In this document: positions 10,143 through 41,900 of the stretch, one piece after another
How the letters are laid out: every line of letters begins with the position of its first letter
How positions within the stretch are numbered: position 1 is the stretch's first letter
Assembly: GCA_949841245.1 (NCBI GenBank)
Contig: CATKYT010000001.1
Location: 10,906 to 74,905, forward strand
Length of the DNA stretch: 64,000 nt
Direction of reading: 5' to 3'
DNA from: an uncultured Eubacteriales bacterium
GTDB taxonomy: Bacteria > Bacillota > Clostridia > Christensenellales > UBA1242
The notes under the pieces: model-generated
The model's input: only the letters and a program-made list of their open reading frames with translations
What the model was told of the DNA's origin: nothing
Database searches by the model: none
Position numbers and translations under genes: made by a program

Positions 10143-10173
10143 AAAAAAAAGATTGCAAAGTGCAATCTTTTTT
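10143..10173. terminator. bidirectional terminator
   Basis: A-run, then stem agattgca / tgcaatct with loop aag, then T-run. Confidence 0.55.
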
Positions 10174-11086: not shown

Positions 11087-11212
11087 AAGTTTCTCCTTTT
11101 AATGAATTTCAGTGTTCGTTGCAACTTTTAAACATTCAGAAATTTTTAGTTTATAAATGTTTCGCAATTTTCAAACTATTTTAACATAATTTTATTGTTA
11201 ACAATTTTTAAT

Positions 11213-11677: not shown

Positions 11678-11809
11678 AAAAACCTTCCGTAAATATATTC
11701 TAACATTAATTTAAAACTAAACAAAGTAATTGACAAGAAAATTTGTTGTTATTATAATGTTTAAAAATGGGGCAATAATAGGAAGAAGAACAAAATCTAA
11801 GGACGGAAT

Positions 11810-12154: not shown

Positions 12155-12201
12155 AAAACAGGACAACAACTATAAATTTTGAAACCAACCAAAACTAAAA
12201 C

Positions 12202-12237
12202 AAAAAAATTACCACGACAAATGTCGTGGTTTAATTT
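12202..12237. terminator. rho-independent terminator
   Basis: Stem accacgac / gtcgtggt with loop aaat, flanked by A- and T-rich runs. Confidence 0.5.
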
Positions 12238-12238
12238 A

Positions 12239-13159: not shown

Positions 13160-13265
13160 TTATCCACCTCGACAAGATAGTTATAACATAAATTCTTTTT
13201 TATTGCAATACATTTAAATAAAGTTAATGTAAGTAAAAATTAGTCAAAAGAAATATTATCCAGTT

Positions 13266-13322
13266 GTTTTGTCTATGTTTTTCTTTAAATGATCAGCTAG
13301 TTTCAAAATTGAGTAACTAAAG
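13266..13322 (-). repeat. intergenic repeat family, copy C (3' of metK)
   Basis: The minus strand reads CTTTAGTTACTCAATTTTGAAACTAGCTGATCATTTAAAGAAAAACATAGACAAAAC. This is about four-fifths identical by eye to copy A. Confidence 0.6.
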
Positions 13323-13330
13323 TAATGTAT

Positions 13331-14419
13331 TTATTTATTAATTTTCTTTACTTGTTCCCAAGGGAAAGCAGGATTTCCGAAGTGACCATAACATGCTGTT
13401 TGTTTAAAGATTGGTCGAAAAAGTTGCAATTCTTTGATTATATTGTCAGGTGAGAAATCAAAATTTTTGTTTACTATTTCATATATTTTTTCCAAACTGA
13501 TTTTTTCTGTGCCAAAAGTTTCAATGCAAAGAGAGATAGGTTTTTCCATGCCAATGCCATAAGAAACTTCAATTTCACATTTGTCACAAAGTTTGTTGTA
13601 AACCAAATTTTTGGCAACATAGCGCGCATAATATGCACCAGAGCGGTCAACCTTTGTGGCATTTTTACTGGAAAAACATCCACCACCAACTTTGGCGATT
13701 CCACCATAGGTGTCTACAACAATTTTTCTTCCCACACAGCCACTGTCACCAAAACTGCCCCAAATTGTAAATTTTCCACTTGGATTAATGATGAATTTAG
13801 TTTCCTTTTTAACAAATTTTCTATATTCTTCCAAAACGACATCCACAACATTGGTTTGAATTTTGCTTTGCAAATTTTCGCAACCTTTTTTATGACTTGC
13901 GCTGATTAAAATTGTGTCTATGTAAAGGGGTTTATTGTCATCATAACAGAAAGAAACTTGACATTTGGCGTCAGCAAAAAATTCGTCTGTGGTTTGACGA
14001 TATTCTTCAAAGCGTTTCATAAGTTTATGTGCCATTGTAATTGTGAGTGGCATAAATTCTTTTGTTTCATTTGTGGCATAACCATAAACCATTCCTTGAT
14101 CATTGGCACAAAGTTTTTGCTTTACAACAGCTTGATTAATGTCTGGGCTTTGTTTGGAAATTTCTGTGACAATTTTAAATTTCTTTTTATATCCGATTTG
14201 TGTCAAAATTTCATTGGCAATTTTTTTCCAGTCAATTTTTGCCGTTGTGGTTGCTTCACCATAAACAAAAAGTTTGTTGTTTTTAATGGCACATTCGACA
14301 GCCATTTGTGCGTTGGCATCTTGTCTTAATGCTTCATCTAAAAAAGCGTCAGCAATTACATCACATGTTTTGTCTGGATGTCCAATGTTTACGCTTTCGC
14401 TTGTTAAAATTTTTTTCAT
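13331..14419 (-). CDS. metK: S-adenosylmethionine synthetase
   Basis: KILTSESVNIGHPDKTCDVIADAFLD and GGGCFSSKNATKVDRSGAYYARYVAKN. Start set at ATG 14419 with SD AAGGAGAAAAC. The listed 5' extension to 14494 overlaps the riboswitch terminator. Confidence 0.95.
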   Translation of the reverse strand: MKKILTSESVNIGHPDKTCDVIADAFLDEALRQDANAQMAVECAIKNNKLFVYGEATTTAKIDWKKIANEILTQIGYKKKFKIVTEISKQSPDINQAVVKQKLCANDQGMVYGYATNETKEFMPLTITMAHKLMKRFEEYRQTTDEFFADAKCQVSFCYDDNKPLYIDTILISASHKKGCENLQSKIQTNVVDVVLEEYRKFVKKETKFIINPSGKFTIWGSFGDSGCVGRKIVVDTYGGIAKVGGGCFSSKNATKVDRSGAYYARYVAKNLVYNKLCDKCEIEVSYGIGMEKPISLCIETFGTEKISLEKIYEIVNKNFDFSPDNIIKELQLFRPIFKQTACYGHFGNPAFPWEQVKKINK

Positions 14420-14443
14420 AGTTTTCTCCTTGGTCATAAGAGT

Positions 14444-14586
14444 AAAAAAAGACTGCCACATATGCGACAGTTGAAACAGTTTCCATCGCATCAAGCATTA
14501 GCACCTTGTCATTTTCAATTATCTTATTATAATGATAGGTTGCTGTGTGGTCAACGGGCTTGTCCCTTACACACTCTTTATGGTTA
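14444..14586 (-). promoter_or_regulatory. SAM-I (S-box) riboswitch with terminator expression platform
   Basis: The leader reads AGAGTGTGTAAGGGACAAGCCCGTTGACCACACAGCAACC ... AAGGTGCTAATGC, matching the S-box core. It is followed by terminator ACTGTCGC-ATAT-GTGGCAGT plus CTTTTTTT at 14471..14444. Confidence 0.8.
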
Positions 14587-14591
14587 CAAAC

Positions 14592-14620
14592 ATTATAACA
14601 TTGACAAAATTCTATGTCAA
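14592..14620 (-). promoter_or_regulatory. consensus promoter TTGACA-17-TATAAT for the metK leader
   Basis: The minus strand reads TTGACAtagaattttgtcaatgtTATAAT. Confidence 0.65.
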
Positions 14621-14719
14621 CCAAATTACCTTTGAAAAATATCTTTTAACATACTTTAAATTGTTTGATTTTTATTTTATTTTGTTTTATTATTACATTG
14701 AAATTAAAGGAGAAAATTT

Positions 14720-15349
14720 ATGAAAAGAGTTAAAAAGTTTTTTGGCGATTTTAAAAAATTCATTTCCAGAGGAAATGTAATTGACATGGCTGTCGGTGTT
14801 ATTATTGGCGGTGCTTTTAGTGCAATTGTTACAGCACTTGCAAATAAAATCATTATGCCACTTATCAATTTGTTACTGTCTTTGGCTGGTGGTGATGGCT
14901 TGGAATCAGCAAGAACAATTCTTGGAGAACCTGTTTACAACACACCAGGGCTTGCAGAAAGTGGCATAAATTGGGCGTCAACAATTTACATTGATTGGGG
15001 TGCTTTCATTACAGCCATCATTGATTTTATTTTAATTGCATTTGTGTTGTTTTTAATTTTGAAAATAATGATGAACGCACAAGGAGTTTTGACAAAAGCA
15101 AGCAAAGAACGCCCAACAAAAGAAGAACGCAAAGTTTTAAAAGAACAAGGCGTAAATATGAAAGACAGAAAAGCGGTTATTGCAGCAACAGCAGAACTCA
15201 GAGAAAAGAATAAACCAGCACCAGTTGAACCATCACCAACTCAAGAACAACTTTTGGCAGGAATTTTGGAAGAACTTAAAAAACAAAACGAAGCAAAAGA
15301 AGATGTGATTGTAGAACCAGTAAAGAAAACTAGAAAGACAACAAAATAA
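14720..15349 (+). CDS. mscL: large-conductance mechanosensitive channel with a long charged C-terminal extension
   Basis: FKKFISRGNVIDMAVGVIIGGAFSAIVTALANKIIMPLI is the MscL TM1 signature. SD AAAGGAG is present. At 209 aa it is longer than my recollection of typical MscL (~130-150 aa). Confidence 0.9.
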   Translation: MKRVKKFFGDFKKFISRGNVIDMAVGVIIGGAFSAIVTALANKIIMPLINLLLSLAGGDGLESARTILGEPVYNTPGLAESGINWASTIYIDWGAFITAIIDFILIAFVLFLILKIMMNAQGVLTKASKERPTKEERKVLKEQGVNMKDRKAVIAATAELREKNKPAPVEPSPTQEQLLAGILEELKKQNEAKEDVIVEPVKKTRKTTK

Positions 15350-15353
15350 AATC

Positions 15354-15421
15354 AAAAAACAAGGCTTAGTCACTAACTTTTGAAACTAGCGGAATAATTA
15401 AAGGAAAAACACAGACAAATC
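15354..15421 (+). repeat. intergenic repeat family, copy A (3' of mscL)
   Basis: AAAAAACAAGGCTTAGTCACTAACTTTTGAAACTAGCGGAATAATTAAAGGAAAAACACAGACAAATC. Confidence 0.6.
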
Positions 15422-15593
15422 TGCCTATGTTTTCTTTTTGCTCCTAACCCTCTCTTGACTGCTAAAAAAGCGAATATCTCTGCCGTTGTCACAGGTTGTT
15501 GTCAAAATAGATAGATTACAAATAACTAGACATTCACTTTAACCTTGACAACAAAGAATATTCACTTACACTAGAAAATAGAGAGAAGAAAAC

Positions 15594-15730
15594 AAAAAAG
15601 CAAAAGAGCGGTGTGCGTTATGCTCTGCCAGCAACTGCTCTTTTGCTAGCAATATTGAGTTTGGGCGTGTGCTTGTATGCTGGAGCGAAGCGACAGCACT
15701 TGTATCAAGACAAGCACACGTCTAAATGCC
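15594..15730 (-). ncRNA. candidate structured small RNA or leader element (GC-rich double hairpin); family unknown
   Basis: There is a 10-bp stem gcaaaagagc/gctcttttgc (15600..15646) and an 11-bp stem cgtgtgcttgt/acaagcacacg (15666..15720). On the minus strand the first hairpin is followed by T6, which is terminator-like. No ORF of 60 aa or more occurs in 15350..15836. Confidence 0.25.
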
Positions 15731-20529: not shown

Positions 20530-20559
20530 TTGCCTTTTTATTTTTCTTTTTGTTATAAT
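20530..20559 (+). promoter_or_regulatory. putative operon promoter TTGCCT-18-TGtTATAAT (extended -10)
   Basis: TTGCCT at 20530..20535, TG at 20551..20552, TATAAT at 20554..20559. SD AGGAG precedes ATG 20591. Confidence 0.4.
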
Positions 20560-20590: not shown

Positions 20591-21436
20591 ATGGAAAAAA
20601 CTATTACTTTTTCTGGAAGTAATGAAAAATTGTTTTCAAGATGTCTTTTGGAAAGTTTGGATGTTCGACAGACAATAATTGTTCCAGAAACACACAACGC
20701 CATTTTGGTTAAAGATGGGCAAATGTTGCAAACTTTGTCTTCTGGGAAATACAGATTGGATTCATTTGTTGACCAAAAAGAAGATGCTGGTTCAACTTTG
20801 GAAGTTCTGTTTATGTCAAAAACCGCAAAACTTAAACTTTTGTGGGGAACAGCACAAAGATTTACACTTTATGATTTTGTTTTGGATGAAGATTACCATG
20901 TCGGCATGAGCGGTGATTTTGAAGTTCAAATTGGCGACCCAAGAAAATGCTATCTTTATCTTGTCGGAGTGGCAGATGACTTGACAGCAGACGGATTGCA
21001 AGAAAGGTTGCAATCAAATGTTGTTTCCGTTTTGGAAGATGTCGTTATGCAATTTGCCGAAGCAAACAAAGTTTGTTTCAATCAACTTTCGCTTACCAAG
21101 AAAAAGGTTTCTGCCAAGGTTTTGACACAATTAAACCAAAAACTTATGAATGAATACGGAATTGCGGTTTTTTCTTTCAACATTGCAAACATTATAATAG
21201 AAGAAAATGATCACAAACGACTTTCGGCGCGTTTTAAAGAATTGAAAAACCCTAAAAGTCAAGAAAAGCCGGAAAATGGTTTCTTTTGCAAAGGATGTGG
21301 TCAAGCATTGGAAGAAGATGCCAAGTTCTGCCCATATTGTGGTAAGAAAGTTGGTGGAAACAAGTTGTGTCCAAATTGTCAAGCCGAAAATCCTGTTGGT
21401 GCAAAATTTTGCTCATCTTGCGGAAATAAATTATAG
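20591..21436 (+). CDS. SPFH-fold protein of the YdjI type fused to C-terminal double zinc ribbon
   Basis: NAILVKDGQMLQTLSSGKYRL, VLFMSKTAKLKLLWGT, FEVQIGDPRKCYLYLVG and EYGIAVFSFNIANIIIEE parallel my recollection of B. subtilis YdjI. The C-terminus has CKGCG..CPYCG and CPNCQ..CSSCG. Confidence 0.65.
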   Translation: MEKTITFSGSNEKLFSRCLLESLDVRQTIIVPETHNAILVKDGQMLQTLSSGKYRLDSFVDQKEDAGSTLEVLFMSKTAKLKLLWGTAQRFTLYDFVLDEDYHVGMSGDFEVQIGDPRKCYLYLVGVADDLTADGLQERLQSNVVSVLEDVVMQFAEANKVCFNQLSLTKKKVSAKVLTQLNQKLMNEYGIAVFSFNIANIIIEENDHKRLSARFKELKNPKSQEKPENGFFCKGCGQALEEDAKFCPYCGKKVGGNKLCPNCQAENPVGAKFCSSCGNKL

Positions 21437-21447
21437 GAGGAAAAATT

Positions 21448-21867
21448 ATGTTGGCATTTTTAATAGTTATTTTAATTTTAATTTTGGGTGTTTCTGCCTT
21501 TTACATCTGGAAAGAATATTTTTATAAGGGCGACAGAAAGAAAGGTGAAAAACTTGACATAGGTGGTCGTGGTGTAATGAAAAACAAAAAAGCCATTGAA
21601 AGCATGGTGGCAAATGTGGAAAGTATTATTGTTTATGCAAACGGAAACGACACTCTTTGTAATCGTTTGGTGGAAGTTAAGGACAACATCAGATTTTTTA
21701 ACCCAACAACAAATCAAAAGGCTTTGGCAGTTGACGCCAAACTTTCAGCCAAACTTGATGACCTTAAAATTGCAGTAGCAAAAGACAACACACAGGAAAC
21801 ATGTTTCAGATTGTTGGAAGAAGTTGAAGCATATATTGTTCAACGCAAAAAGGAAGAACAGGCTTAA
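21448..21867 (+). CDS. single-pass membrane protein with cytoplasmic helical domain
   Basis: N-terminal TM helix (LAFLIVILILILGVSAFYIW) and strong SD AGGAGG. The stop overlaps the next start (TAATG). Confidence 0.55.
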   Translation: MLAFLIVILILILGVSAFYIWKEYFYKGDRKKGEKLDIGGRGVMKNKKAIESMVANVESIIVYANGNDTLCNRLVEVKDNIRFFNPTTNQKALAVDAKLSAKLDDLKIAVAKDNTQETCFRLLEEVEAYIVQRKKEEQA

Positions 21868-22220
21868 TGAAAAGAACCTATCAAGTTTCAGCCGATGTGG
21901 CAGAGAAAGAAAAAGCGTTAAAGGAACTTAATCTTGGATATTTGAATTTGGAAGACAGGATGTTTGAACAAGCAAAACTCAGTTTTGAAATTGTGTTGCA
22001 ATTTGACCCTAAGTGTGCGGATGCCTATTGGGGTTTGATGCTTACAAAATTTCAATTATCAAACGAAAATGATTTGACAGACAACGCCATTCTTTATAAA
22101 ACGGCAATATATTTGCCAGAATATGAAAACGCAATGAATTATGCTGACAAAAACCAGAAAAAACGATTTGAAGATATGCTGGAAAACATACATAAAATCA
22201 ATGCTGGCGACAATTTTTAA
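21867..22220 (+). CDS. small TPR-like helical-repeat protein
   Basis: FEQAKLSFEIVLQFDPKCADAYWGLMLTKFQL is TPR-like. The same motif type recurs in 24646..28437. Confidence 0.5.
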   Translation: MKRTYQVSADVAEKEKALKELNLGYLNLEDRMFEQAKLSFEIVLQFDPKCADAYWGLMLTKFQLSNENDLTDNAILYKTAIYLPEYENAMNYADKNQKKRFEDMLENIHKINAGDNF

Positions 22221-22232: not shown

Positions 22233-22862
22233 ATGTGGTTACCATTTAAGAGAAATAAATTTAAAAAACTAAACAGAGAAGACCTTGTTAATTCCATCTG
22301 CGAATTAGAAAGACAGGAAAGAACAGTGGAAGCGGAAGTTTTTCAAAAGTTGAAAGAAATTGACGCTTTAAAAGAAAAAGGTAAGAAAGAAAAGAATAAA
22401 GAACTTCAACTTTTCTACGCAAAAAAAATTAGTCATTTAAACGAAGAAAAACAAACTTGCATGGAAAGGGGAATGTATTTGCTTTACAACATTCGTCTTA
22501 TGAATAAACTTAAAGATGCTTATGACAGCAACACTTTCTTCAAAACACAAACAAAAGTTCCACTCAGCGAACTTTTGAAAGACCAAACAGGATTGGCGAA
22601 GTTTTTAAATAAGGCTTTACAAACCAGAATTAAGTCAGAAGATGTTTTGACAAGTGCAGATGACTTGTTTGCCGAAGTGCAAGCGGCTTATGATGTCAGC
22701 GAGCCTATTTATGGAGTTGGAAAGCAAGAAGAAGAACTTTTAAGCATGTTTGAACAAGAAGACCAACTCAGTGATGAGCGTGAGTTATATCAAGCACAAG
22801 AAGATTATGAAGAACCTGCAAAGGAAACTATAAAAAAGAAAAAAGCGAAATTGGAGGAGTAA
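22233..22862 (+). CDS. ESCRT-III/Snf7-superfamily-like protein (Snf7/Vps20-like paralogue)
   Basis: Basic N-terminal helical hairpin (..KGKKEKNKELQLFYAKKISHLNEEKQTCMERGMYLLYNI..) and an acidic C-terminal third. The layout parallels Snf7/CHMP6 as I recall them. SD AAGGAG is present. Confidence 0.5.
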   Translation: MWLPFKRNKFKKLNREDLVNSICELERQERTVEAEVFQKLKEIDALKEKGKKEKNKELQLFYAKKISHLNEEKQTCMERGMYLLYNIRLMNKLKDAYDSNTFFKTQTKVPLSELLKDQTGLAKFLNKALQTRIKSEDVLTSADDLFAEVQAAYDVSEPIYGVGKQEEELLSMFEQEDQLSDERELYQAQEDYEEPAKETIKKKKAKLEE

Positions 22863-23462: not shown

Positions 23463-23480
23463 ATAAAAGGATTTTTGCCA

Positions 23481-24635
23481 ATGAATGATAAAAATACAAG
23501 CATAAGTGTTTTGTCTGACAAATTTGACCTTTACATGAAAAAAGGCAAACAGGCAAAAGAACAAGGAAACATCGCACTTGCCAAAAGAAATTTTTTGCTG
23601 GCAAGCGAAGTTATGATGCAAATGGCTAAGCAAAGTCAAGGAAAACTTAAAGAAGTGCGAATGGACAGAGCGCGCCGATTGGTGGAACTTACTGACAATT
23701 TAAACAAGAAACCTATTAAAGTGGAAAAAAGCGAAAAACCAAAAGGCGAAAACAATAACTCAGAAGAAGATGAAGATGTAAAAAAATGGCAAACCGCAGA
23801 AGTGCCAAAAATCAGTTTCAGTGATGTTGCTGGGCTTGACGATGTTAAGAAAGCCATTACAATTCGAATGATTAATCCGATTAAATATCCTGACAAATAC
23901 AAAATGTATGGCAAGAAAACAGGCGGTGGAGTGCTTTTATATGGCCCGCCTGGAACTGGTAAAACCATGATAGCAAAAGCCATTGCCAATGAAGTTGGTG
24001 CAAAGTTTTACGCCATAAAAGGTTCTGATATAGTCAGCAAATGGGTTGGCGACAGCGAAAAGAACATCAATTCACTTTTCCAAGAAGCCAACAAACAAGA
24101 CAGAGCAATCATCTTTATTGATGAAATGGACAGTTTGATTGGCAAGCGTGGTGTTGACACACACAACGACAAGCGTGTCAACGAATTTTTGCAACAAATT
24201 GATGGTGTTTCTGGAAGAAATCAAAATTTACTTCTTCTTGGTGCAACCAACAGACCATGGGATATTGACAGTGCAGCAATGCGTTCTGGAAGATTTTCTC
24301 AAAAAATCTATCTTCCATTGCCAGATGCACCAGCCAGAAAATTTATGATTGAAAAGGCACTTAAAGGTGTGCCAGTTGACAAAGATTTTGATGTCAACAG
24401 AGTTGTGGAACAAACTGAACTTTACAGTGGTGCGGACATAGAAGAATTGTGTGACCGTGCAAAGGACGAACCACTTTTGAAGTCAATCGCCACAGACAGT
24501 GTCGTTTTGGTGACTAATTCCGACTTTGACAAAGTGTTGGAAGTTTTGCCACCAAGCGTGACTATGAAAGAATTGAAAGAATTTGAAGACTATAATAATG
24601 AAGTTTCAAGTTACATAAAGAAACCTAAAAAATAA
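23481..24635 (+). CDS. MIT-domain AAA+ ATPase, Vps4/CdvC-like
   Basis: N-terminal three-helix segment (KKGKQAKEQGNIALAKRNFLLASEVMMQMAK..RARRLVELTDNL). Walker A GPPGTGKT, pore loop SDIVSKWVGDSEK, Walker B IIFIDEMDSL, and ATNRPWDIDSAAMRSGRF. Start set at ATG 23481, 9 nt after AAAGGA. Confidence 0.8.
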   Translation: MNDKNTSISVLSDKFDLYMKKGKQAKEQGNIALAKRNFLLASEVMMQMAKQSQGKLKEVRMDRARRLVELTDNLNKKPIKVEKSEKPKGENNNSEEDEDVKKWQTAEVPKISFSDVAGLDDVKKAITIRMINPIKYPDKYKMYGKKTGGGVLLYGPPGTGKTMIAKAIANEVGAKFYAIKGSDIVSKWVGDSEKNINSLFQEANKQDRAIIFIDEMDSLIGKRGVDTHNDKRVNEFLQQIDGVSGRNQNLLLLGATNRPWDIDSAAMRSGRFSQKIYLPLPDAPARKFMIEKALKGVPVDKDFDVNRVVEQTELYSGADIEELCDRAKDEPLLKSIATDSVVLVTNSDFDKVLEVLPPSVTMKELKEFEDYNNEVSSYIKKPKK

Positions 24636-24645: not shown

Positions 24646-27600
24646 GTGAAAGAGCGTGTTTGTAAAAATTGTGGGGGCAGACAATATAAAGTTGTTGGGC
24701 AAAACATGGTTAAATGTATGTTTTGTGGGACTCTCTATGTGGACGAACAGGCTTCAAAGGAAGAAGAAGTTTTAATTGTTGGTGCAAACGAAAAACTTCG
24801 AGACCTTAAATTTAAAGAAGCAGTTGATGAATTTAACAAAATTCTTTTGCTGTTTCCTTTTTCTTTTGCTGGTTTCTATGGCAGAGCGCTTGCCACAAAC
24901 AAAATTGTGCTTTATTCCAACAACAAAAACATGTCAAAAAGGCCACGCTTTTTTGGTGAAGACATTTCTTCACTTTCAAAAAACAGTGACTTTAAGCGTG
25001 CAGTGGAACTGGCTCCTGCTGAAACAGCAAAAACTTATAATGCTCTTGCAAAGCGGGTGGACAAAATTAGAACTGCTTACAGAGAGATTAAGGAAAAAGT
25101 TGATGTCATTTTAAGTGCTGTTGACAACAATAGATTGCAGAATGTTCTTTCTGATGTAGTCGATAAACTTAACGAACATAAATTTAAAAGTTATGTTATG
25201 CCTGACAACAATGAATTAGAAGAAGTTACATTCAATGCACTTCAAAGAGCAAAAGTTTTGCTTTTGTTTGTGACGGACAGCAATATAAACAGCACATTTA
25301 GAAGTGTTTATGAAAGATATTTATATTTCATTTCACAAAGAAAGAAAACAAAAACAAGTTTAATTTTAATTGCCGACCAATCAAATTTGGATATGTCAAG
25401 GTTGCCGATTGAACTTCAATCTTGCAAAAACATTTTGGATTTGAATTCAGACACATTGCTTTTTGACATTCAAGTTATGGTTGGCGAAGAAATGCGAAAA
25501 TCAGCATCAGAAATTGCCAAAATTGACACAATAAAAGTTGATAAAGTTCAACCTAAAAAGAAAAAATACATAGCCACTGAAACAATTAATCCGCTTGAAC
25601 TTGGGCATTACCATGTGGATAATGTAGAAATCACAGAAGAAGGCAAAATTAAATGGATTTATTTGTCATTGAAAAATGGTGACTTTGCCACAGCAGAAGA
25701 AGTTTTGGTGACTGAGTTGGAAAATGATGCCAACAATGCCGAACTTTTACTTGCCCAACTTATGATTTCAAGACAAGTCAAAACAAAAGAAGAATTTTTT
25801 GATAATATTTCCAATTTCAAAAACACAGAAGAAATTGACAGAATTTTGCAATTTGCATCCAAAGGTTTTGCCGAAGAATTTGTGGACAGCATGGAAAATC
25901 TTGTTATTAAATTGCATGATGTAAGTTATTACAACACTTTTCTTTTATACCTTGCAAAATACAACAGCCCAAACCGTCAAAACTTTATTGACAGTGCCAA
26001 AGTTTTGGCTGTGGAAACCATGAATGAAGAACTGATTGAAAAGGTTTTAAGGTGTTTCAAAAAGTCTGATGTTGATGGGATTGTGCAGTTTTATTTTGAT
26101 TTGGCCCAGAAAAGCGACAACAAAAAATATTATGAAAAAATTTTGGAAATTGACGAAGGTCATGCAGAAAGCAACTATGCGGCTTTGTTTGAACACTTTA
26201 AAACGGTTAAAGAATTGCTTACCTACCAAAACCGAAACGAATTGGAAGCGGTGTTTAAATTTTTAAATGGCTCACAACGCGATGAGTTTATTTCCAGACT
26301 TATCAATATGATTATGGAAGTGGCATTTATTGACCTTGAAAAATGTCAAACACAAATTGATTTCTATTTGTCATATGTTTCAGATAATAAACGATTGGTT
26401 GCCATTTTAAAATCAATTGTGCAGAGATTTTTGCATTTAGAATTTTTCACACAAGCGGAGAAATATATTTCCATTGCCATCAACAAAGATAAGAAGAATG
26501 CAGAGTTGTTTTGGTTTTTAATTTTGGCTAAGGCACATTGCCGTAAAGAACAAGAACTTATTACTTCAAATGTAAAAATAACTCAACTGCCAGAATGGTC
26601 AACATTGTTGACACTTGCCAATGAACAGCAATCTGAAAAATATGCTGGAATTGTCAGCAAAATGAATTTGTTTAAAGGTTCCAAAAAAGAATTTAAAGAA
26701 GATGCTTTGGACAAAGCCCAATACATTTCAAAGACAAATGAATTTTTGGACAGGAATTACAAAATTCTGTTGGAAATGGAAAAACAAGAAGGCACTTCTG
26801 TGTTGCGTGGTGTGAATTATTATCGCTTGCAACTTCAACCTTTTGAAGAATATGTCAAGTTGCTGGAAAACATAAATAAATATGATGAATTCATCGATGT
26901 TGTTTTAAGAATAGAAGACAGACTTAAAAATTTGGACTTAACTTTTGAAGCATCTATAAATGTCACAAATTTGTTGGATAAAGAAAAATATTTAAATAAA
27001 GCGCTTGGCGAATATGATGATGTAAGGGAAGAAAAACACAGAAAAAAAATTAAAGATATAAGAAAAGATGTCTTTTTAAAACATTTTTTACTTAGTTTCT
27101 TGGTTTATTTTCCTGCACTTTTTACCACTGTGCTTTTAATTACGACTTTGTCTGCCCCAAAAGAAGTTTACATGAATTTCAGTTACAACTTCTTGGTTTG
27201 CACGCTTATTTATTCTGTTGCGGTGGCAATTATAAGTTTGATTTATTTCATTGTAAAAAAACATAAATCATCATTTAAACTGAAAGTCATGAATTTAAGT
27301 CTAATGGGTATTGGACTTGCGAATGTAATTTTGTTGCTTCTTGGTTTTTATGCTTTTCCTGTAAAAATGCAAATCAATAACTTGGAAGAATTCAACACTT
27401 TGATTCACAATGCCAGCCATGCTTCATTTGTTTTGCAACAAGATTTAGACATGTCTAATGTTTTATGGGACAGTGTAAATTTTACAGGCACATTAGATGG
27501 AAATGGCAAAACATTAAAAAATGTCAAATTCTTAAAAAACAGCAATGGTCTTTTTGCAACAAACTCTGGAACTATTAAAAATTTGAATGTCATTTTGTCC

Positions 27601-28437
27601 CATGAATTATATAATAATCCCAACCTTTTTGGCACAATTGCAGGCACAAATGTCGGCACAATCGAAAGATGTTCAGTTTCCGGCAAAATTAATTTTGAGT
27701 GCAACATTAATGCAGTGATTGGTGGCATTGTTGGAAATTTAAAAGGTGGAAAGATTTACAACTGTAAATCAAATCTTACTGTTGGAATTTCAGTAAATTC
27801 CGGTGATGTTATTTTCGGCGGAGTGGCAGGAAAAATTGTTGAAGGGAAAAAGACTTCAGAAATTAAAAAGACTTCTGTTGAAACTTTAACATTAAATTTG
27901 ACAGCAAACAATGCAAAAGTTTTAAATGCAGGTGGACTGGTTGGTTATGTTGAAAGTTTTGCTGAGAAAAAATTTGCCGTGGATTCAAACAATGTTGTCA
28001 TCGAAGCACACGCAAATGGTAATGCAGAAACATTATCGTTTGGTGGACTGGTTGGCTATGGTGAACTTGGTGCGTCCAACAACTATACTGTTGGAGAGAT
28101 TAATGTCAGTCAACTTGGTGGTGAAAGGTGTGTTGGTGGGCTTTATGGAAAATTGATTGTGGATTCTGACAAAATCAACAAAACAAAAATTATCTCATCA
28201 TATTCAACTGTTGACATAAATTCAGATGATGATTATTCCGAAGTCGGAAGTCTGGTCGGCAGACTTGGCGGAGAAATGGAAAACTGTTTTTCAAGTTCTT
28301 CATTGAATGTGTTTGGAAACAGAGTTGGATTTGGTTCTGCCAAAAACTGTGATAACAAAAAGTTGTTTTATGAAAACAAATATAAATTTGACGAAAACAT
28401 TTGGGATTTAACTGGTAATTTTCCAATTTTAAAATAA
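24646..28437 (+). CDS. multidomain membrane protein: cytoplasmic zinc ribbon plus helical (TPR-like) repeats, three TM helices, extracellular GLUG-type domain
   Basis: GTG start 5 nt after GGAG. Zinc ribbon CKNCGG..CMFCG. Three hydrophobic helices encoded at about nt 27080..27365. C-terminal FTGTLDGNGKTLKNV, GGIVGNL, GGLVGYV, FGGLVGYG, VGGLYGKL and VGSLVGRL repeats. Confidence 0.65.
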   Translation: MKERVCKNCGGRQYKVVGQNMVKCMFCGTLYVDEQASKEEEVLIVGANEKLRDLKFKEAVDEFNKILLLFPFSFAGFYGRALATNKIVLYSNNKNMSKRPRFFGEDISSLSKNSDFKRAVELAPAETAKTYNALAKRVDKIRTAYREIKEKVDVILSAVDNNRLQNVLSDVVDKLNEHKFKSYVMPDNNELEEVTFNALQRAKVLLLFVTDSNINSTFRSVYERYLYFISQRKKTKTSLILIADQSNLDMSRLPIELQSCKNILDLNSDTLLFDIQVMVGEEMRKSASEIAKIDTIKVDKVQPKKKKYIATETINPLELGHYHVDNVEITEEGKIKWIYLSLKNGDFATAEEVLVTELENDANNAELLLAQLMISRQVKTKEEFFDNISNFKNTEEIDRILQFASKGFAEEFVDSMENLVIKLHDVSYYNTFLLYLAKYNSPNRQNFIDSAKVLAVETMNEELIEKVLRCFKKSDVDGIVQFYFDLAQKSDNKKYYEKILEIDEGHAESNYAALFEHFKTVKELLTYQNRNELEAVFKFLNGSQRDEFISRLINMIMEVAFIDLEKCQTQIDFYLSYVSDNKRLVAILKSIVQRFLHLEFFTQAEKYISIAINKDKKNAELFWFLILAKAHCRKEQELITSNVKITQLPEWSTLLTLANEQQSEKYAGIVSKMNLFKGSKKEFKEDALDKAQYISKTNEFLDRNYKILLEMEKQEGTSVLRGVNYYRLQLQPFEEYVKLLENINKYDEFIDVVLRIEDRLKNLDLTFEASINVTNLLDKEKYLNKALGEYDDVREEKHRKKIKDIRKDVFLKHFLLSFLVYFPALFTTVLLITTLSAPKEVYMNFSYNFLVCTLIYSVAVAIISLIYFIVKKHKSSFKLKVMNLSLMGIGLANVILLLLGFYAFPVKMQINNLEEFNTLIHNASHASFVLQQDLDMSNVLWDSVNFTGTLDGNGKTLKNVKFLKNSNGLFATNSGTIKNLNVILSHELYNNPNLFGTIAGTNVGTIERCSVSGKINFECNINAVIGGIVGNLKGGKIYNCKSNLTVGISVNSGDVIFGGVAGKIVEGKKTSEIKKTSVETLTLNLTANNAKVLNAGGLVGYVESFAEKKFAVDSNNVVIEAHANGNAETLSFGGLVGYGELGASNNYTVGEINVSQLGGERCVGGLYGKLIVDSDKINKTKIISSYSTVDINSDDDYSEVGSLVGRLGGEMENCFSSSSLNVFGNRVGFGSAKNCDNKKLFYENKYKFDENIWDLTGNFPILK

Positions 28438-28597
28438 AGTTTTTACAAAAAAAATAAAATGAAAAAGGTTCTTTCAAGAACTTTTTTTCATATATAAATA
28501 AGATTGCAAAATTTTTGATCCAACAAATGAAATTAGTTGACTTATCAACTTTTTGTGTGATAAAATCAGTTTACTTTATGAATTAAGCGAGGTGACA

Positions 28598-30337
28598 ATG
28601 TTTAAATTACTTAAAAATTTTAAATGGCAAGATTATTGCTTTTTGCTTGTTGTTATTGGTCTTGTCGTTTTGCAAGTTTGGCTGGATTTAAGAATGCCAG
28701 AATATTTGGGAAGCATCATTGGCGAACTTCAAAAATCTCAGTTTGGATTGGAAGTTGACATCAACACCATTTTAATCAATGGTGGTTACATGTTGGCTTG
28801 TGCTGTTGGAAGTTTGGTGTCAATGATTATAAACGGTTTTTTGATTTCCAATATTTCTTCTCGATTTGCTTTCAACATCAGACAAAAAGTTTATGACAAA
28901 GTTCAGGGTTTCTCTTTGGCTGAAATAAGCAAGTTTTCCACTGCAAGTTTAATTACAAGAACGACCAACGACATTACACAAGTTCAAATGGTCATTGTAA
29001 TGGGCATGCAAGCATTGTTTAAAGCCCCAATCTTGGCAGTTTGGTCTATTTTAAAAATTTTAAACATATCCACTGCTTGGTCTGCTGCGGTAGGTGTGGC
29101 AGTGTTGACACTTATTGTTATGATTGCAATCATCGTTATTTTAGCAATGCCAATGTTTAAAAAAATTCAAACTTTAACAGATGACATCAACCGTGTCACA
29201 AGAGAACACTTGACAGGAATCCGAGTTATTCGTGCTTCCAATGCGGAAGAATATCAAGAAGAAAAATTTGCTAAGTATAACAACAATTTGACAAAAGCAT
29301 ATTTGTTTACTGGAAGGGTTATGAGTGTTTTAGGGCCAGGAATGACAATTATTATGTCAGGGCTGAGCCTTGCAATTTATTGGATTGGTGCTTACATTGT
29401 CAAGACACCAACAGATTTTGCCAACATGATGACTTTCACAACCTATGCAATGAATGTGCTTATGGCATTTATGCTTTTAATTATGATTTTCATTCTTATG
29501 CCAAGAGCGATTGTTTCGGCAAAAAGAATAAACGAAGTTTTGGACACACAAAACATGATCGTTTCAGGACAGTATGTAGATGAAAATTTAAACAGCACAG
29601 CATCAGTTGTTTTTAAAAATGTTTCTTTCAAATATCCAGATGCAGAAGAATATGTTTTGGAAAACATCTCTTTTGAAGCACATGATGGCGAAACTGTGGC
29701 TTTTATTGGTTCAACAGGAAGCGGAAAAAGCACATTAATCAATTTAATTCCAAGGCTCTATGATTGCACAGAAGGCGAGATTTTGATTGATGGTGTAAAT
29801 GTAAAAGATTATGACCTTGAAAATTTAAACAAAAAAATTGGATATGTTCCACAACGCGGTGTTTTGTTCAGTGGAACAGTAAAGTCCAACATCGACTTTG
29901 GCGATAACAATGCCGATGATGAAACAATTAAAAAAGCAATCAGTGTGGCTCAGGCAACCAACTTTGTTTCCCGCATGAGTGACGGAATTGACAGCAAAAT
30001 TTCTCAGGGTGGAACAAATGTTTCTGGTGGTCAAAAACAAAGACTTTCAATTGCTCGTGCTATTGCAAGAAAACCAGAAATTTTCATATTTGACGACAGT
30101 TTCTCTGCACTTGACTATAAAACAGACAGAAAACTTAGAACAGCACTTACTAAACACACAAACAAAGCAACTAAGTTTATTGTCGCTCAAAGAATTGGCA
30201 CAATTAAAGATGCTGACAAGATTATTGTTTTAGACAATGGAAAAGTCGTGGGGATTGGCAAGCATGATGAACTTTTGAAAAAATGTTCTGTTTACAAAGA
30301 AATTGCCTTGTCGCAACTCTCTAAGGAGGAATTGTAA
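28598..30337 (+). CDS. ABC exporter, fused permease/ATPase subunit 1 of a heterodimer
   Basis: Six-TM domain, then GSTGSGKST, VSGGQKQRLSIARA and IFIFDDSFSALD. Start set at ATG 28598 after SD GAGGTGA. Confidence 0.9.
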   Translation: MFKLLKNFKWQDYCFLLVVIGLVVLQVWLDLRMPEYLGSIIGELQKSQFGLEVDINTILINGGYMLACAVGSLVSMIINGFLISNISSRFAFNIRQKVYDKVQGFSLAEISKFSTASLITRTTNDITQVQMVIVMGMQALFKAPILAVWSILKILNISTAWSAAVGVAVLTLIVMIAIIVILAMPMFKKIQTLTDDINRVTREHLTGIRVIRASNAEEYQEEKFAKYNNNLTKAYLFTGRVMSVLGPGMTIIMSGLSLAIYWIGAYIVKTPTDFANMMTFTTYAMNVLMAFMLLIMIFILMPRAIVSAKRINEVLDTQNMIVSGQYVDENLNSTASVVFKNVSFKYPDAEEYVLENISFEAHDGETVAFIGSTGSGKSTLINLIPRLYDCTEGEILIDGVNVKDYDLENLNKKIGYVPQRGVLFSGTVKSNIDFGDNNADDETIKKAISVAQATNFVSRMSDGIDSKISQGGTNVSGGQKQRLSIARAIARKPEIFIFDDSFSALDYKTDRKLRTALTKHTNKATKFIVAQRIGTIKDADKIIVLDNGKVVGIGKHDELLKKCSVYKEIALSQLSKEEL

Positions 30338-30338
30338 G

Positions 30339-32111
30339 ATGGCAAGAAAATTTTCAGTTAAACAAAAAGAAACAAAAGGGACTTTCAAATCTTCCATGGG
30401 AAAACTTTTTAGATATTGTCGCTTTCAAATGTGGCCACTGATTTTGTCAATGATTTTTGGTGTCATTGGTGTGGCTTGTCAAATTGTTGGACCAAATTTA
30501 ATTGGTGATGTAACAGATTACATTCAAGAAGGCTTGATGGGTGCTGATGTCATTAAACAAATTTCTGACCTTTGCTTCATCTTGGTTGCAATTTACATTT
30601 CAATGGCAGTTTTGCAATATTTGCAACATTACATCATGAACAATGTGACACAAAATGTAACAAGAAGATTCAGAACAGACATTTCCAAAAAAATCAATCG
30701 TCTGCCATTAAACTATTTTGACACTCATCTTCATGGAGATGTGTTAAGTCGTGTTACAAACGATGTTGACACACTTGGTCAAAGCATGAATGAAAGCATT
30801 GCAAATTTACTTTCAAATGTAATTTTGTTTATTGGTGTGCTTATAATGATGTTTGTTACACAATGGATAATGGCATTGACTGTAATTGCAACAACAATAA
30901 TTGGATTTGCTTTTGCCAGCATATTCTTACTTCGTGCACAAAAATATTTTGACCAAAATCAAAAGAACTTGGCTGACATCAATGCTCATGTTGAAGAAGT
31001 TTATTCAGGCCACAATGTTGTTCAACTTTTCAACGGAAAAGAAACTCAATCACAAGAGTTCGCAAAAATCAACAGAAAGTTGTTTTTCAGTGGTTGGAAA
31101 TCACAATTCATTTCAGGTGTAATGATGCCAGTTATGAGTTTTGCAGGAAACTTAGGTTATGTTGCTGTTTGCGTGGTTGGCGCTGTGCTTATTGCAAAAC
31201 AAGGGCTTGGTTATGGCGTAATTGCTTCATTTATGATTTATGTCAGATTATTCTCTAATCCACTTGCTCAGATTGCACAAAGTTTAACAAGGCTTCAATC
31301 TACTTCTGCCGCAGCAAATCGTGTGTTTGAGTTTTTGGAAAGCAACGAGCTTGAAAATCCCGTTTTAAAAGTGGAAGATGTTAAAGGTAATGTTCAATTT
31401 GACCATGTCAAGTTTGGGTATAATGAAGACAAGATTATTATTAAAGATTTTTCAGCCAAAATAAAGGCTGGGCAAAAAGTGGCAATTGTTGGACCAACTG
31501 GTGCAGGAAAAACCACACTTGTCAATTTGTTAATGCGTTTCTATGAAATCAATTCTGGTGACATAAGGATTGACGGAATTCCAACCAGACATTTAACTCG
31601 CGAAAATGTGCATGCGTTGTTTGGAATGGTTTTGCAAGACACATGGCTTTTTGAAGGAACAATCAAAGAAAACTTGCGTTACAACAACGAAAATGTAACT
31701 GACGAACAAATTTACAATGCATGTAAACAGGTGGGTGTTGACCACTTTATTCAAACATTGTCTAAGGGTTATGACACAGTGATTGATGATGCCATCAATT
31801 TGTCTGCTGGTCAAAAACAACTTCTTACCATTGCCAGAACAATGATTCAAGACAGACCGATGCTTATTTTGGATGAAGCGACAAGTTCGGTTGACACCAG
31901 AACAGAAATTCTTTTGCAAAAAGCAATGGATAAGGCAATGGAAGGACGCACATCTTTCATCATTGCACACAGACTTTCCACAATCAAAAATGCTGACATG
32001 ATTTTGGTGCTTAAAGATGGCGACATCATTGAAAATGGAACACATAACCAACTTTTGAAAAAGGGCGGTTTCTATGCCGAACTTTACAACAGTCAGTTTG
32101 AAGAAAAATAA
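30339..32111 (+). CDS. ABC exporter, fused permease/ATPase subunit 2 of a heterodimer
   Basis: GPTGAGKTT, LSAGQKQLLTIART and MLILDEATSSVD. Start is ATG 30339, right after the upstream stop, with SD AAGGAGG. Confidence 0.9.
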   Translation: MARKFSVKQKETKGTFKSSMGKLFRYCRFQMWPLILSMIFGVIGVACQIVGPNLIGDVTDYIQEGLMGADVIKQISDLCFILVAIYISMAVLQYLQHYIMNNVTQNVTRRFRTDISKKINRLPLNYFDTHLHGDVLSRVTNDVDTLGQSMNESIANLLSNVILFIGVLIMMFVTQWIMALTVIATTIIGFAFASIFLLRAQKYFDQNQKNLADINAHVEEVYSGHNVVQLFNGKETQSQEFAKINRKLFFSGWKSQFISGVMMPVMSFAGNLGYVAVCVVGAVLIAKQGLGYGVIASFMIYVRLFSNPLAQIAQSLTRLQSTSAAANRVFEFLESNELENPVLKVEDVKGNVQFDHVKFGYNEDKIIIKDFSAKIKAGQKVAIVGPTGAGKTTLVNLLMRFYEINSGDIRIDGIPTRHLTRENVHALFGMVLQDTWLFEGTIKENLRYNNENVTDEQIYNACKQVGVDHFIQTLSKGYDTVIDDAINLSAGQKQLLTIARTMIQDRPMLILDEATSSVDTRTEILLQKAMDKAMEGRTSFIIAHRLSTIKNADMILVLKDGDIIENGTHNQLLKKGGFYAELYNSQFEEK

Positions 32112-38980: not shown

Positions 38981-41900
38981 ATGAAAAAGTTTAGCATTGT
39001 TTTCATGTCAATTTGTGTGACCTTTCTGGCAACACTTTTCTGTGCTTGTTCTTTTAAAAAGCCGGAAGCACAATTTTCTAAAACTGAACACATAGTTTCA
39101 ATTGGTGACCAAATTGATTTGGATGAATATTTGCAATTAACGGGTGTGAGTAAAACTGACCTCACATATCGTTTTTCTGATTCTTCCTTATTTGAAGTAG
39201 ATGGACATAAAATTAAAGCCAAGGCTTCAGGAAAGTCTAAGGTTTATGCTTTTTATGAAGAAAGCAATCTTGCATCAATGCAAGTGGTTGTAAGAAAACA
39301 ATTTGACGCGCCAAATTCAATTCGTTTTGAAGATGGGAATTTAGTTTGGAATACTGTTACTGGTTGGTATGAAGGTGAAGCATTACACACTGTCGCAAGT
39401 TCTTACACAGTTGAGTGGGAATATAACAGTGCCAATAATGAAAAAGAAATTGGCATTGAAATAGTTGAAACAAACAAATTGGATATGACAGATTTTAAAT
39501 CTGGTGTTTACAATTTCAAAGTTAAGGCAAACACTCATCAATATTTTGACGCAAGTGAGTTTGCGGTGGCTGACCCTGTTTATTATGGCTTTATGCAAAA
39601 AATTAAAGAAGAAGATTTTGATTGGAACTTTGACACAGGTGTTTTGACTTGGCAACAAATGGAAGATGCAAAGTTTACTGTCAGACTTAATGGTGCTTTG
39701 CTTAACGATTTGGCAGGAGCAGATTCCAATGGATACATAACAACAAATGCTGTGGACCTTACAAGATATTTAAGTGATGCAAACAGCGGAGATTATGACA
39801 TTACAGTTACGGCATATGACATCAATGGTGTTAAATACGAAATGGCAAGTGAAAATTTTGTTGTTACAAAACTTGCAACTCCTGTTGTTTCAAACGATTT
39901 CACAATGTCAAACGGTGGACAACTTTTAATAAAGACAAATCAAAGTGTCGAGAGTTTTAAAGTTATTGCCGAAAACAGCATCGTTGGAAAACTTGAATTT
40001 ATCTTAGAAAATGCTGGACAAGACTTAATGACATCATTAGACTTTTTGAAAAGTGGTGTTTATGACATCAGCGTTGTTGCTGAAAATCATGATGAAACAA
40101 GGCATTACTTTAAAAGTAGACCTGCCATTTTTGGGAAAGTTTACAAACTGCCGGCAGTTACTTTGACTGGTAAAGGTGCAAACACTGAGAATGGAACAGC
40201 CTTTAATGTTGAGGTTGAAAACACAGCGATTGTCGAAACATCTTTAAAAGTAAGTTCTAAAGATGACACTCAAATTTTTAATAATTTCACAAATGGTTTT
40301 TCTTGGACGGCAAATGCCAGTGGACAATATAAACTTAGTGGCGTTTTGCAATCAAAGAGTGCAACTTCCAGCATTGATGGAAACATGGTTTATATCATAA
40401 ACTCAAATGCCAGTGAAGAACTTGTTTTGACAAAATTAGGTGCAGTTGGCGTTGTTATGCACAAATATGAAAATGGTAATTCTGTTTTGACATTCAGCGA
40501 AGTGGACTATGCCGACCAAAACTGTTATCAAATTTTACATTTCAATGGCGTTGATTATGAAAAAGTTGAAGAAAACAAAATTTCTTCAATTACAGTTTCC
40601 AATAAAGTAGTAACTGTTGTTTTAAGTGGCAGAGTAGAAACTTTGTTTGAAGCAATTGACTGTGAATTTGAATTTAAAATTGTGGCAAACACTTTGGACA
40701 GTTCTACATCAATAAGTTCCACTGCAAACAAAACACTGACACTTCTTGGACAACCAACAGCACCAGAAACAGGAAATCCACAAAATGGAGTCTTTGTTTG
40801 GAACGCTGTGGAAAATGCAGATAAATACAATGTGGAAATTTATTATACAAACAACAAAGATATTTTTGAAAGCAAAGATTTAAGTTTGTTTGAAAAGACA
40901 ATCACAATTACTTCTGAAACACAACTTCGTTTTAACAAAGTTGGATATTACATAGTTCGTGTGTATGCGGTTGCCGACACTGCAAGTGAAAACCTTTATA
41001 TTTCATCTGCTGTTGCGTTGGAAAGAACTTTTCACATTTCTGAAAAAGTGTCAATTGGCAATGTGCAATTGAGAAACAATGGAAGCAATATATTTTTAAG
41101 AATTTTTAACAACGACAGCAATGTTAAAACTTATACAATCAGTGTTACAGGTCAAGCGGACGAAACTTTGGTGGCAAGTGGAGAAAGTTATGATGATTAT
41201 ACATTAAACAAATCTTTCTTTGCACAAGATACAGAAATTACAGTCACAGTGACTGCGAATGCCAGTGACACGACTTTAAGACCTTCTGACAGTTACAGTT
41301 TAAGTGTGGAAAAACTTAGAAATGTAACTCCTGACGATGTTTTGGTGGAAGATGACCATGGTTATTTAATCAGTTTGGTGCCTTATAAAAATGGTTTAAC
41401 TTCAAAAATCACTTATGACGCAAGCAATAAAACCAGTGCTAAAAATCAAAAAGCTACACTTGATGTTTCAAATGTTGGTGCAGATGAATTTAATTTAACT
41501 TTTGAATTTGTCGGCAGTGATTTAATCAATGGAATATATGATGTCAAAGATAACAAAGTGTTCCTTAATTGTGATGAAGGTTCTAAGACAATTGCATTTT
41601 CCAGAATTGCAAAGCCAGAACAACTTATCTATGAAAATGGAAAATTCAATTTCGTTGCAAATGGAATACCTGCAAACAGTTACAGCTATGTTTTGGAAGC
41701 GACTTATAAAAATGCCAACAATTCCAACTTTTTAATTGCAATAAAATTTGATGGAACAGTTACAGCCACAATTGGTGGAAGCAATGAAAAAATTGTTCTT
41801 GGGCAAAATCAAGACTTTATTGATTTGGCTGCAAATACAATTGATTTCAATGCTATTGAAACAGCAATTAATTCCAACGCAAAATTGGAAGCATGTTACA

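Follow-up and report, generated by a model that had tools for sequence, protein, structure and literature searches.

We analyzed a 64,000-nucleotide stretch of DNA (the window) from an uncultured Eubacteriales bacterium (contig CATKYT010000001.1) and focused on one of its open reading frames (ORFs), termed g7, which is the last of seven tightly packed genes (g1 to g7; the gaps between them range from -1 to 12 nt). On balance, we lean toward the view that g7 encodes a scaffold or receptor subunit that is embedded in the membrane and belongs to a bacterial membrane-remodeling system of the ESCRT-III (Snf7-type)/Vps4-like kind. A preliminary description of this DNA, made from the sequence letters, had assumed ESCRT-III/Vps4 and SPFH machinery next to g7, and profile searches agree with it: g5 belongs to the Snf7 family, g6 is a Vps4/CdvC-like ATPase, and g1 is an SPFH protein.

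The assignment of g5 comes from a profile of its relatives. The window protein alone had no match, and a first homolog search returned close orthologs only, with no annotation. A search of 1.84 billion representatives yielded 319 relatives, and a profile was built from 46 diverse ones. Over positions 9-143, this profile matched CHMP2A (7zcg_B) with an E value of 1.5e-5; weaker matches included Heimdall ESCRT-IIIB, CHMP1B, and CHMP3. The Pfam Snf7 model matched 20 of the 46 relatives (best E value 4.2e-6). Thus, g5 provides the operon with a predicted Snf7-family polymer subunit. Its C-terminal helix is IDKEMEELRKKIE. Some distant relatives of g5 (P0255, P0264, P0260, and P0265) carry a C-terminal fusion to a RuvB-like AAA+ or FtsK-like P-loop ATPase.

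The product of g6 consists of a single AAA domain plus lid. The NCBIfam CdvC model aligned with its residues 12-375 at 212 bits, which is far below the equivalog cutoff of 650, and the Vps4_C model scored 19.4 bits (cutoff 21.3) on the window protein and 24.0 bits on the ortholog from the distant locus L010. The pore loop, SKWVGDSEK, resembles that of Vps4.

The link between g7 and these genes is seen across loci. In all eight orthologous loci that we compared (L001-L008; the contig scan gave at least six), the seven genes occur in the same order, whereas the flanks differ, and g7 adjoins the Vps4-like gene in nine of nine places, the window included. Where g7 has an identity of only 32-45%, that of g4, g5, and g6 is 70-86%. 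We also compared six distant loci (L009-L014), which are the neighborhoods of g5 relatives at 48-65% identity. Four of them (L009, L011, L012, and L014) contain SPFH, g2, g4, Snf7-like, and AAA genes together with a gene for a big partner protein that has a zinc ribbon and a TIR_2 domain. L013 has the five core genes and a 788-aa protein with a zinc ribbon, in which no TIR domain was detected, and L010 keeps the Snf7-like and AAA genes and a tetratricopeptide repeat (TPR)-TIR_2-transmembrane (TM) partner, but not SPFH, g2, or g4. The same zinc ribbon opens each of the six big partners; five have TIR_2 at approximately residues 150-290, and in four (L009-L012), TPR-like repeats or g3-like modules can be recognized. 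Their TM helices number between none detected and about seven; the outer end varies as well: it is a GLUG domain in L011, BspA-type leucine-rich repeats (LRR) in L009, and none in L010, L012, and L014. Because gene order is kept in 8/8 orthologous loci and the core is kept whole (4/6) or in part (2/6) in distant ones, a functional partnership of g7 with its neighbors is very likely.

The g7 ORF lies where the preliminary description had placed it. Its start codon is preceded by a GGAG, 8 nt upstream, and lies 10 nt beyond the end of g6. The ORF did not arise by chance. Full-length homologs of g7 are 1,203-1,317 residues long and 35-85% identical to it; a few shorter entries were also found. 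Those with a named source come from metagenome-assembled genomes of Clostridia, and NCBI labels the relatives only as "hypothetical" or "tetratricopeptide repeat protein." We aligned 42 homologs (mean column identity of 53%) and used this family alignment to build AlphaFold2 models of residues 1-310 (predicted local distance difference test [pLDDT] score of 87; predicted template modeling score of 0.79) and 300-1263 (pLDDT of 85). In a Pfam and NCBIfam scan of the window protein, GLUG was the sole match; the full layout is given in Table 1.

The N-terminal ribbon that had been read from the sequence as CKNCGG-N14-CMFCG is found at residues 6-27, and its four Cys residues (CKNCGG-N14-CMFC) are invariant or nearly so across the 42 homologs. 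The approximately 800 residues of TPR-like repeats described initially are partly confirmed: helical repeats are present, but they extend over only about 570 residues (34-146 and 331-787) and are split by a TIR-like domain and the disordered linker 296-330. In the model, module A comprises helices 34-84, a beta hairpin at 87-102, and helices 114-146. The segment 331-787 (pLDDT of 73-94) forms a superhelix of stacked helix-turn-helix units and thus is a TPR solenoid by its modeled fold, with Foldseek matches to SPINDLY, the OGT TPR domain, consensus TPR (CTPR) proteins, Naa15, Ski3, and BBS4/8 at probabilities of 0.99-1.0. At the sequence level, the signal is weaker. No Pfam TPR model matches the window protein at E ≤ 1, and CTPR matches are limited to weak ones at residues 52-80 and 351-376; however, TPR_14, TPR_16, TPR_19, or TPR_2 is recorded in about a quarter of the 91 orthologs. 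The motif A(E/D)xx(W/Y)xLxL(A/T)K, initially described as recurring in these repeats, does not hold up as such, with one strict match (residue 619) and two loose ones. What does recur is a module of approximately 90 residues, because a hidden Markov model (HMM) of g3 matches g7 three times (residues 44-144, 334-427, and 593-676), and this is the recurrence that had been sensed. Residues 709-778 weakly match the MIT domain 2v6y of Sulfolobus (E value of 0.32), a result that we did not count as evidence.

The linker between the TIR domain and the solenoid has a pLDDT below 50 in both models, yet it contains the conserved motif PxELGHYxVEN (residues 316-326; window positions 25591-25623), in which L319, Y322, V324, and N326 show little or no variation, and G320 none, among the 42 homologs. 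This motif may be a partner-binding peptide.

Three hydrophobic helices, expected at positions 27080-27365, are located at 27076-27354. The flanks contain nine Lys/Arg residues before TM1 (residues 791-812), one in loop 1, five in loop 2, and one after TM3. By the positive-inside rule, this distribution predicts a topology with the N terminus inside and the C terminus outside, as had been suggested. Residues P823, P838, K839, Y842, F845, and N893 are conserved in this region of the alignment. According to the predicted topology, 810 of the 1,263 residues are cytoplasmic.

The C-terminal domain shows the features attributed to it by the preliminary description: FTGTLDGNGKTLKNV starts at residue 946 and is followed by six GGxxG-type turns (GGIVG at 1026, GGVAG at 1058, GGLVG at 1096, GGLVG at 1133, GGLYG at 1164, and GSLVG at 1201). 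The Pfam GLUG model (PF07581) matches residues 1198-1219 with 23.4 bits against a cutoff of 20.5, and the family profile matches the GLUG-type domain of PDB entry 3n6z over the whole ectodomain (residues 915-1263; E value of 4e-11). AlphaFold2 predicts a beta-helix with a pLDDT above 90, for which Foldseek finds the IgA1 protease structure 6xja_P. The GLUG motif thus lies inside a predicted beta-helix, and the ectodomain can be classified as a GLUG domain.

The cytoplasmic part of g7 is the better conserved one. Identity to distant members of the family is highest in the zinc ribbon (85%), followed by the TPR modules (approximately 53%), the ectodomain (34%), and the TIR domain (32%), which is the least conserved of the cytoplasmic domains. 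This gradient is consistent with a cytoplasmic machine that is conserved and an outer end that diversifies.

The insert between module A and the linker had been recognized, with low confidence, as a beta-alpha-beta segment at residues ~162-285 that recalls TIR or flavodoxin-like modules, and several lines of evidence now support this. In the model, residues 154-295 (pLDDT of approximately 90) form five strands alternating with helices (bA, 154-158; bB, 182-184; bC, 204-209; bD, 239-243; bE, 262-265), which is a predicted TIR-type flavodoxin-like alpha/beta fold rather than a plain helical repeat. Foldseek matched it to TIR domains of SPARTA TIR-APAZ, BtpA, SARM1, BtTir, TIRAP, RRS1/RPS4, PdTIR, and ThsB (E values of 2e-3 to 2e-2; target-normalized TM-score up to 0.61); TIR is the consistent class in this list, in which generic flavodoxin-like folds appear too. 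On the one hand, the window protein has no match to Pfam TIR_2 (PF13676) at E ≤ 10 and so stays short of the cutoff. On the other hand, TIR_2 weakly matches 6 of 28 orthologous segments (best E value of 0.0019). Relatives of the operon were decisive: TIR_2 matches the three sister partners of L009-L011 with 38.7, 40.6, and 45.2 bits, all above the cutoff of 28, and the matched stretches (residues 152-277, 160-289, and 180-292) have the same position as the insert in g7. Finally, the TIR profile of the g7 family aligns with the TIR_2 domains of L009-L012 and L014 at E values of 1e-10 to 1e-14.

These alignments also bear on whether a catalytic Glu is conserved in this segment, a check suggested in the preliminary description. 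Five of the six distant partners carry the motif SxWxxNEW, and the sister TIR profile matches solved TIR structures (TLR15/2, L6, AtTIR, AbTIR, and RUN1), the best PDB match being the TLR15/TLR2 TIR domain. The Glu of the sister NEW aligns with the Glu of LMEL in L6, LDEL in RUN1, and NYEL in AbTIR and with that of AtTIR, i.e., with the catalytic residue of NAD+-cleaving TIR domains. In the g7 family, the equivalent columns read (E/D)xKN(L/V/F/I/Y)(Y/F)DRY: the Trp is lost too, and the catalytic position, which is V221 in the window protein (positions 25306-25308), is hydrophobic and never Glu in the 42 members. D/E223 was considered as the catalytic acid for its place in helix aC and was rejected, since the HMM alignment to the sister TIR_2 domains puts it two residues after the catalytic position. 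The family therefore lacks the Glu in helix aC (W-x-x-x-E) that characterizes the NAD+-cleaving subclass, and an NADase role is unlikely for g7. The insert is thus a genuine TIR domain but, judged by its sequence, a catalytically dead one: it belongs to the TIR fold and homology group, and we reject a place for it among the enzymatic TIR domains. The sisters with an intact TIR motif and the clade with a dead one form a natural pair for separating TIR scaffolding from catalysis.

How might such a protein work? The strongly conserved cytoplasmic surfaces of g7 (its zinc ribbon, its TPR modules, and the ELGHYxVEN motif of its linker) would dock g5, g4, g6, and/or the zinc ribbons of the SPFH protein at the inner face of the membrane, and this docking would fix the site where the ESCRT-III polymer forms, by analogy with CdvA, ESCRT-II/Vps20, and Bro1/ALIX elsewhere. 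The dead TIR domain could be a self-association platform. Because the ectodomain directly follows TM3, it is expected to stay next to the membrane, inside the wall; this fast-evolving, exchangeable domain might link the assembly with a ligand of the wall or surface, or signal a change at that place. Turnover of the polymer by the Vps4-like ATPase would then bend, repair, or cut the membrane. This would be one form of the coupling between an extracellular event and ESCRT recruitment that the preliminary description proposed. Repair, vesicle release, division, and engulfment are candidate processes served by this system. The only component that both spans the membrane and reaches outside is g7, and it is thus a natural handle on the trigger and site of the system.

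A bolder scenario can be drawn from the same data, and we offer it with considerable doubt. Gut Clostridia would carry a vertically inherited Snf7 and Vps4 machine of the eukaryotic and archaeal style, sited by a Toll-like-receptor-like transmembrane protein, with an exchangeable GLUG or LRR ectodomain and cytoplasmic TIR, TPR, and zinc-ribbon domains, that reads the envelope from outside and calls ATP-driven remodeling to shed, seal, or cut the membrane; the enzymatic trigger of the TIR domain would be ancestral and lost in the clade of the window.

Table 1. Features of the g1-g7 operon and of the g7 protein (positions in the window)
Feature	Position	Strand	Basis or remarks
Promoter-like site	20530..20559	+	TTGCCT-18-TATAAT with TG, 31 nt 5' of g1; consensus match only
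g1, SPFH (Band_7_1) with C-terminal double zinc ribbon	20591..21436	+	Pfam; kept in L001-L008, L009, L011-L014
g2, 139 aa, one N-terminal TM helix and helical domain	21448..21867	+	Core component; homologs in L009, L011-L014
g3, 117 aa, free-standing TPR-like module	21867..22220	+	Same module three times in g7
g4, 209-aa helical protein, highly conserved core component	22233..22862	+	No assignable relative
g5, 198-aa predicted Snf7-family ESCRT-III protein with acidic tail and C-terminal helix	22866..23462	+	Profile search
g6, single-domain classical AAA ATPase, Vps4/CdvC-like	23475..24635	+	Pfam, NCBIfam
g7, subject ORF	24646..28437	+	GTG start, 1,263 aa; 91 full-length homologs
N-terminal zinc ribbon, g7 residues 1-33	24646..24744	+	CxxC-N14-CxxC at residues 6-27; AlphaFold2 strands 14-32
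Module A, g7 residues 34-146	24745..25083	+	TPR-like helices and beta hairpin (AlphaFold2); first g3-like copy
Degenerate TIR domain, g7 residues 150-295	25093..25530	+	AlphaFold2, Foldseek, Pfam, HMM alignment
Low-confidence linker, g7 residues 296-330	25531..25635	+	pLDDT <50 in both AlphaFold2 models
TPR solenoid, all helical, g7 residues 331-787	25636..27006	+	AlphaFold2; g3-like modules B (334-427) and C (593-676)
Basic juxtamembrane stretch, g7 residues 788-810	27007..27075	+	Predicted disordered, pLDDT <50
Three TM helices, g7 residues 811-834, 846-870, 882-903	27076..27354	+	Hydropathy, long AlphaFold2 helices
GLUG beta-helix ectodomain, g7 residues 904-1263 (360 aa)	27355..28434	+	Extracytoplasmic by predicted topology; Pfam, PDB profile, AlphaFold2

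Several observations weigh against placing g7 in an ESCRT-III/Vps4-type system. No family was found for g4 by Pfam, a PDB profile search, or hhalign against a Snf7-like profile. Neither Pfam nor a PDB profile search detected an MIT domain in the N terminus of g6, so that its assignment to Vps4 rests on the AAA core, the Vps4_C match, and the CdvC alignment; furthermore, Cdc48-type models do just as well on this AAA core. Finally, there are sister systems with an intact TIR motif, some of which also contain a BrxL-like ATPase and a trypsin-like protease, and this composition would suit a conflict system better than housekeeping remodeling. The BrxL-like gene (BrxL_N and BrxL_ATPase; L010 12123-14361, L012 12143-14372, and L014 12063-13499) is inserted after the Vps4-like gene and before either the TIR partner or the end of the operon, and the gene for the trypsin-like protease precedes it in L010 and L012.

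The last of these points leads to an unlikely but serious alternative, namely that g7 is an envelope-surveillance receptor in defense or conflict: a Toll-like-receptor-style sensor of phage attachment or envelope attack, with a variable ectodomain (GLUG or LRR), TM helices, and a cytoplasmic TIR domain. Its sisters would signal by TIR NADase activity, the ESCRT-III, Vps4, and SPFH proteins would be the effector that sheds or seals the affected patch or kills the cell, and the clade of the window would have lost the enzyme and kept oligomerization-driven recruitment. The canonical SxWxxNEW motif and Pfam-significant TIR_2 domain in five of the six distant partners speak for it, as do the BrxL-like and protease genes in the operons, the exchangeable and fast-evolving ectodomain of g7, and a serine recombinase gene that adjoins L012. 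However, no PADLOC-DB v2 model matches g1-g5 or g7, and g6 matches generic AAA models only (IetA and TRIP13). Housekeeping flanks (including an ABC transporter, PFL, the dcw cluster, and nrdR) are syntenic over deep divergence, which is unlike a typical defense island, and g4-g6 are very strongly conserved. Moreover, the TIR domain is dead in all 42 members of the clade, and the system is still kept intact.

Two other explanations are less probable still. According to one, which we consider quite improbable, the operon encodes a division or sporulation abscission factor for late fission events (septum closure or engulfment), and g7 marks the site via contact of its GLUG domain with the septal wall. 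In L014, the SPFH/Snf7-like/Vps4-like/BrxL-like/TIR gene set (2358-15698) directly follows mraZ-rsmH-...-ftsQ-ftsA-ftsZ and precedes nrdR, and a gene of the Pfam YabP family (PF07873) is found near the L002 operon; YabP is a sporulation protein. Archaeal Cdv systems also divide by ESCRT-III and Vps4 (PMC7619361). However, linkage to the dcw cluster occurs in only 1 of the 14 compared loci (15 places with the window), the presence of FtsZ and FtsA means that a classical divisome exists, and nothing connects GLUG domains with septal peptidoglycan. According to the other explanation, g7 is an ordinary GLUG surface adhesin or wall protein, the role of its cytoplasmic TPR part is unrelated, and its place in the operon is incidental. 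GLUG modules are indeed found in surface proteins, including the window ORF at 60264, and the NCBI names of g7 relatives given above are compatible with this idea, but we find it very hard to believe: g7 lies beside the Vps4-like gene in all nine places, the homologous zinc ribbon-TIR partner is kept even with LRR or no ectodomain, and the cytoplasmic residues, which make up the majority of the protein, are its better conserved part. Thus, we continue to favor the scaffold or receptor subunit of an ESCRT-III/Vps4-like system.

Other genes of the operon and its surroundings add some detail. The highly conserved g4 shows 72-82% identity within the clade, and five of the six distant loci (L009 and L011-L014) retain it. 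A possible relationship of g4 to Snf7 was rejected as evidence (hhalign E value of 0.05-0.1; probability of approximately 1%). As a separate gene, g3 is found in the clade of the window only; the equivalent small genes in distant loci are homologs of g2. A pair of ABC exporter genes (fused membrane and ATPase domains) lies directly 3' of the operon (window positions 28553-32111). The pair is also found in L001 (8759-12294), and a single such gene lies upstream in L011 (2924-4681); no such genes follow the operon in L002. Separate transcription of the exporter pair in the window is suggested by a promoter-like site (28537-28566).

The window also encodes giant surface proteins that had been described as capped by the same GLUG module as g7, with a hint at a functional connection. 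In the ORF at 60264-63998, which runs off the window, the HMM of the g7 ectodomain matches residues 86-453 as a full module (E value of 3.5e-25) and again residues 491-588, and the Pfam GLUG model matches too; the modules are N-terminal, after a signal or anchor sequence, and do not cap the end of the protein. The module is not reliably detectable in the 3,796-aa ORF at 38981-50371, which has no Pfam match at E ≤ 0.01 and no match to the ectodomain HMM; hhalign gives a faint alignment to its C terminus (last ~300 residues) at 34% probability. By reading of its N terminus, this ORF has a lipoprotein-like signal sequence. In L001-L008, the ectodomain HMM detected no further GLUG protein up to 10 kb away from the g7 orthologs. 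With a shared module in only one of the two ORFs and no GLUG neighbor in these loci, a conserved link was rejected, and the case for a functional link of g7 to the giant surface proteins is weak.

How does the g7 operon compare with known systems? Reviews state that a Vps4-like ATPase appears absent from bacteria (PMC7619361) and that ESCRT homologs are identifiable in archaea but not in bacteria, PspA/Vipp1 aside (PMC10936438). Sporadic transfer of Vps4-like AAA+ genes to bacteria has been reported, where they lie beside a gene for a protein with TPR and six TM helices, with snf7 displaced (e.g., ACB74714.1) (PMC11237479). Our literature searches for this gene set found no published description. 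The reported bacterial pair is similar to g6-g7 in that the ATPase gene adjoins the gene of a TPR-TM protein, read as acting near the membrane; compared by description, the partner of the L010 type (TPR, about seven TM helices, and no ectodomain) looks closest to the TPR protein with six TM helices. The differences are that snf7 is displaced in the reported pair, whereas a Snf7-family gene, an SPFH gene, and two more conserved genes are present in the g7 operon, and that the TIR domain, zinc ribbon, and GLUG domain of g7 are not mentioned for that pair (PMC11237479).

The role proposed for g7, membrane-bound siting of a Snf7-type polymer that works with Vps4, is that of CdvA, ESCRT-II/Vps20, Bro1/ALIX, and CHMP7. 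Bro1 is a TPR-like solenoid that binds an ESCRT-III tail; neither CdvA nor Bro1 was among the top 50 Foldseek hits to g7. None of these adaptors shows what is predicted for g7, namely, integration into the membrane together with an outside domain and a TIR domain.

The YdjF(PspA)-YdjG-YdjH-YdjI system of B. subtilis shares with the g7 operon an SPFH protein of the YdjI type (Band_7_1), which bears a zinc ribbon at its C terminus (PMC11237479, PMC10936438), and YdjI is required for localizing PspA (cited in PMC10936438 and PMC11237479). Both operons combine a polymer of the ESCRT-III superfamily with a zinc-ribbon membrane protein that has an outside domain (YdjG in B. subtilis). However, the polymer in the g7 operon is of the Snf7 type and not of the PspA type, a Vps4-like ATPase is present, there is no YdjH/TPM protein, and g7 is far larger, with TPR, TIR, and GLUG domains.

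With Toll-like and other TIR receptors, g7 shares an outside, putatively ligand-binding repeat domain (GLUG in g7 and LRR in the L009 sister), a membrane passage, and a cytoplasmic TIR domain. The L009 partner (4758-8030) combines an N-terminal zinc ribbon and a TIR_2 domain whose SxWxxNEW motif is intact with TM helices and a C-terminal BspA-type LRR domain (LRR_5, 200 bits), a Toll-like-receptor-like layout in a soil bacterium. In g7, the domains follow one another in the opposite order, the TM helices number three, and a TPR solenoid and a zinc ribbon come in addition; the TIR domain has no catalytic Glu, and no adaptor TIR proteins were seen in the operon. The resemblance is one of layout and not demonstrably one of descent. 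The ectodomain in turn aligns by profile with the "putative IgA1 protease" 3n6z and matches by fold the N-terminal domain of the S. pneumoniae IgA1 protease (6xja; 6xja_P over 357 columns); in contrast to IgA1 proteases, g7 has no protease domain, and three TM helices anchor its GLUG domain to the large part of the protein that lies in the cytoplasm.

Taken with these systems, g7 is most likely, as its predicted domains suggest, an adaptor in the membrane that is assembled from known domains and belongs to a system of the ESCRT-III/Vps4 type. What sets the locus apart from the picture given in reviews is that a Snf7-type subunit, a Vps4-like ATPase, an SPFH protein, and a large TIR transmembrane partner co-occur across many uncultured gut and soil Clostridia. 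As annotated here, the locus combines known themes and adds to them a putative Snf7-type subunit, a TIR domain, and exchangeable ectodomains.

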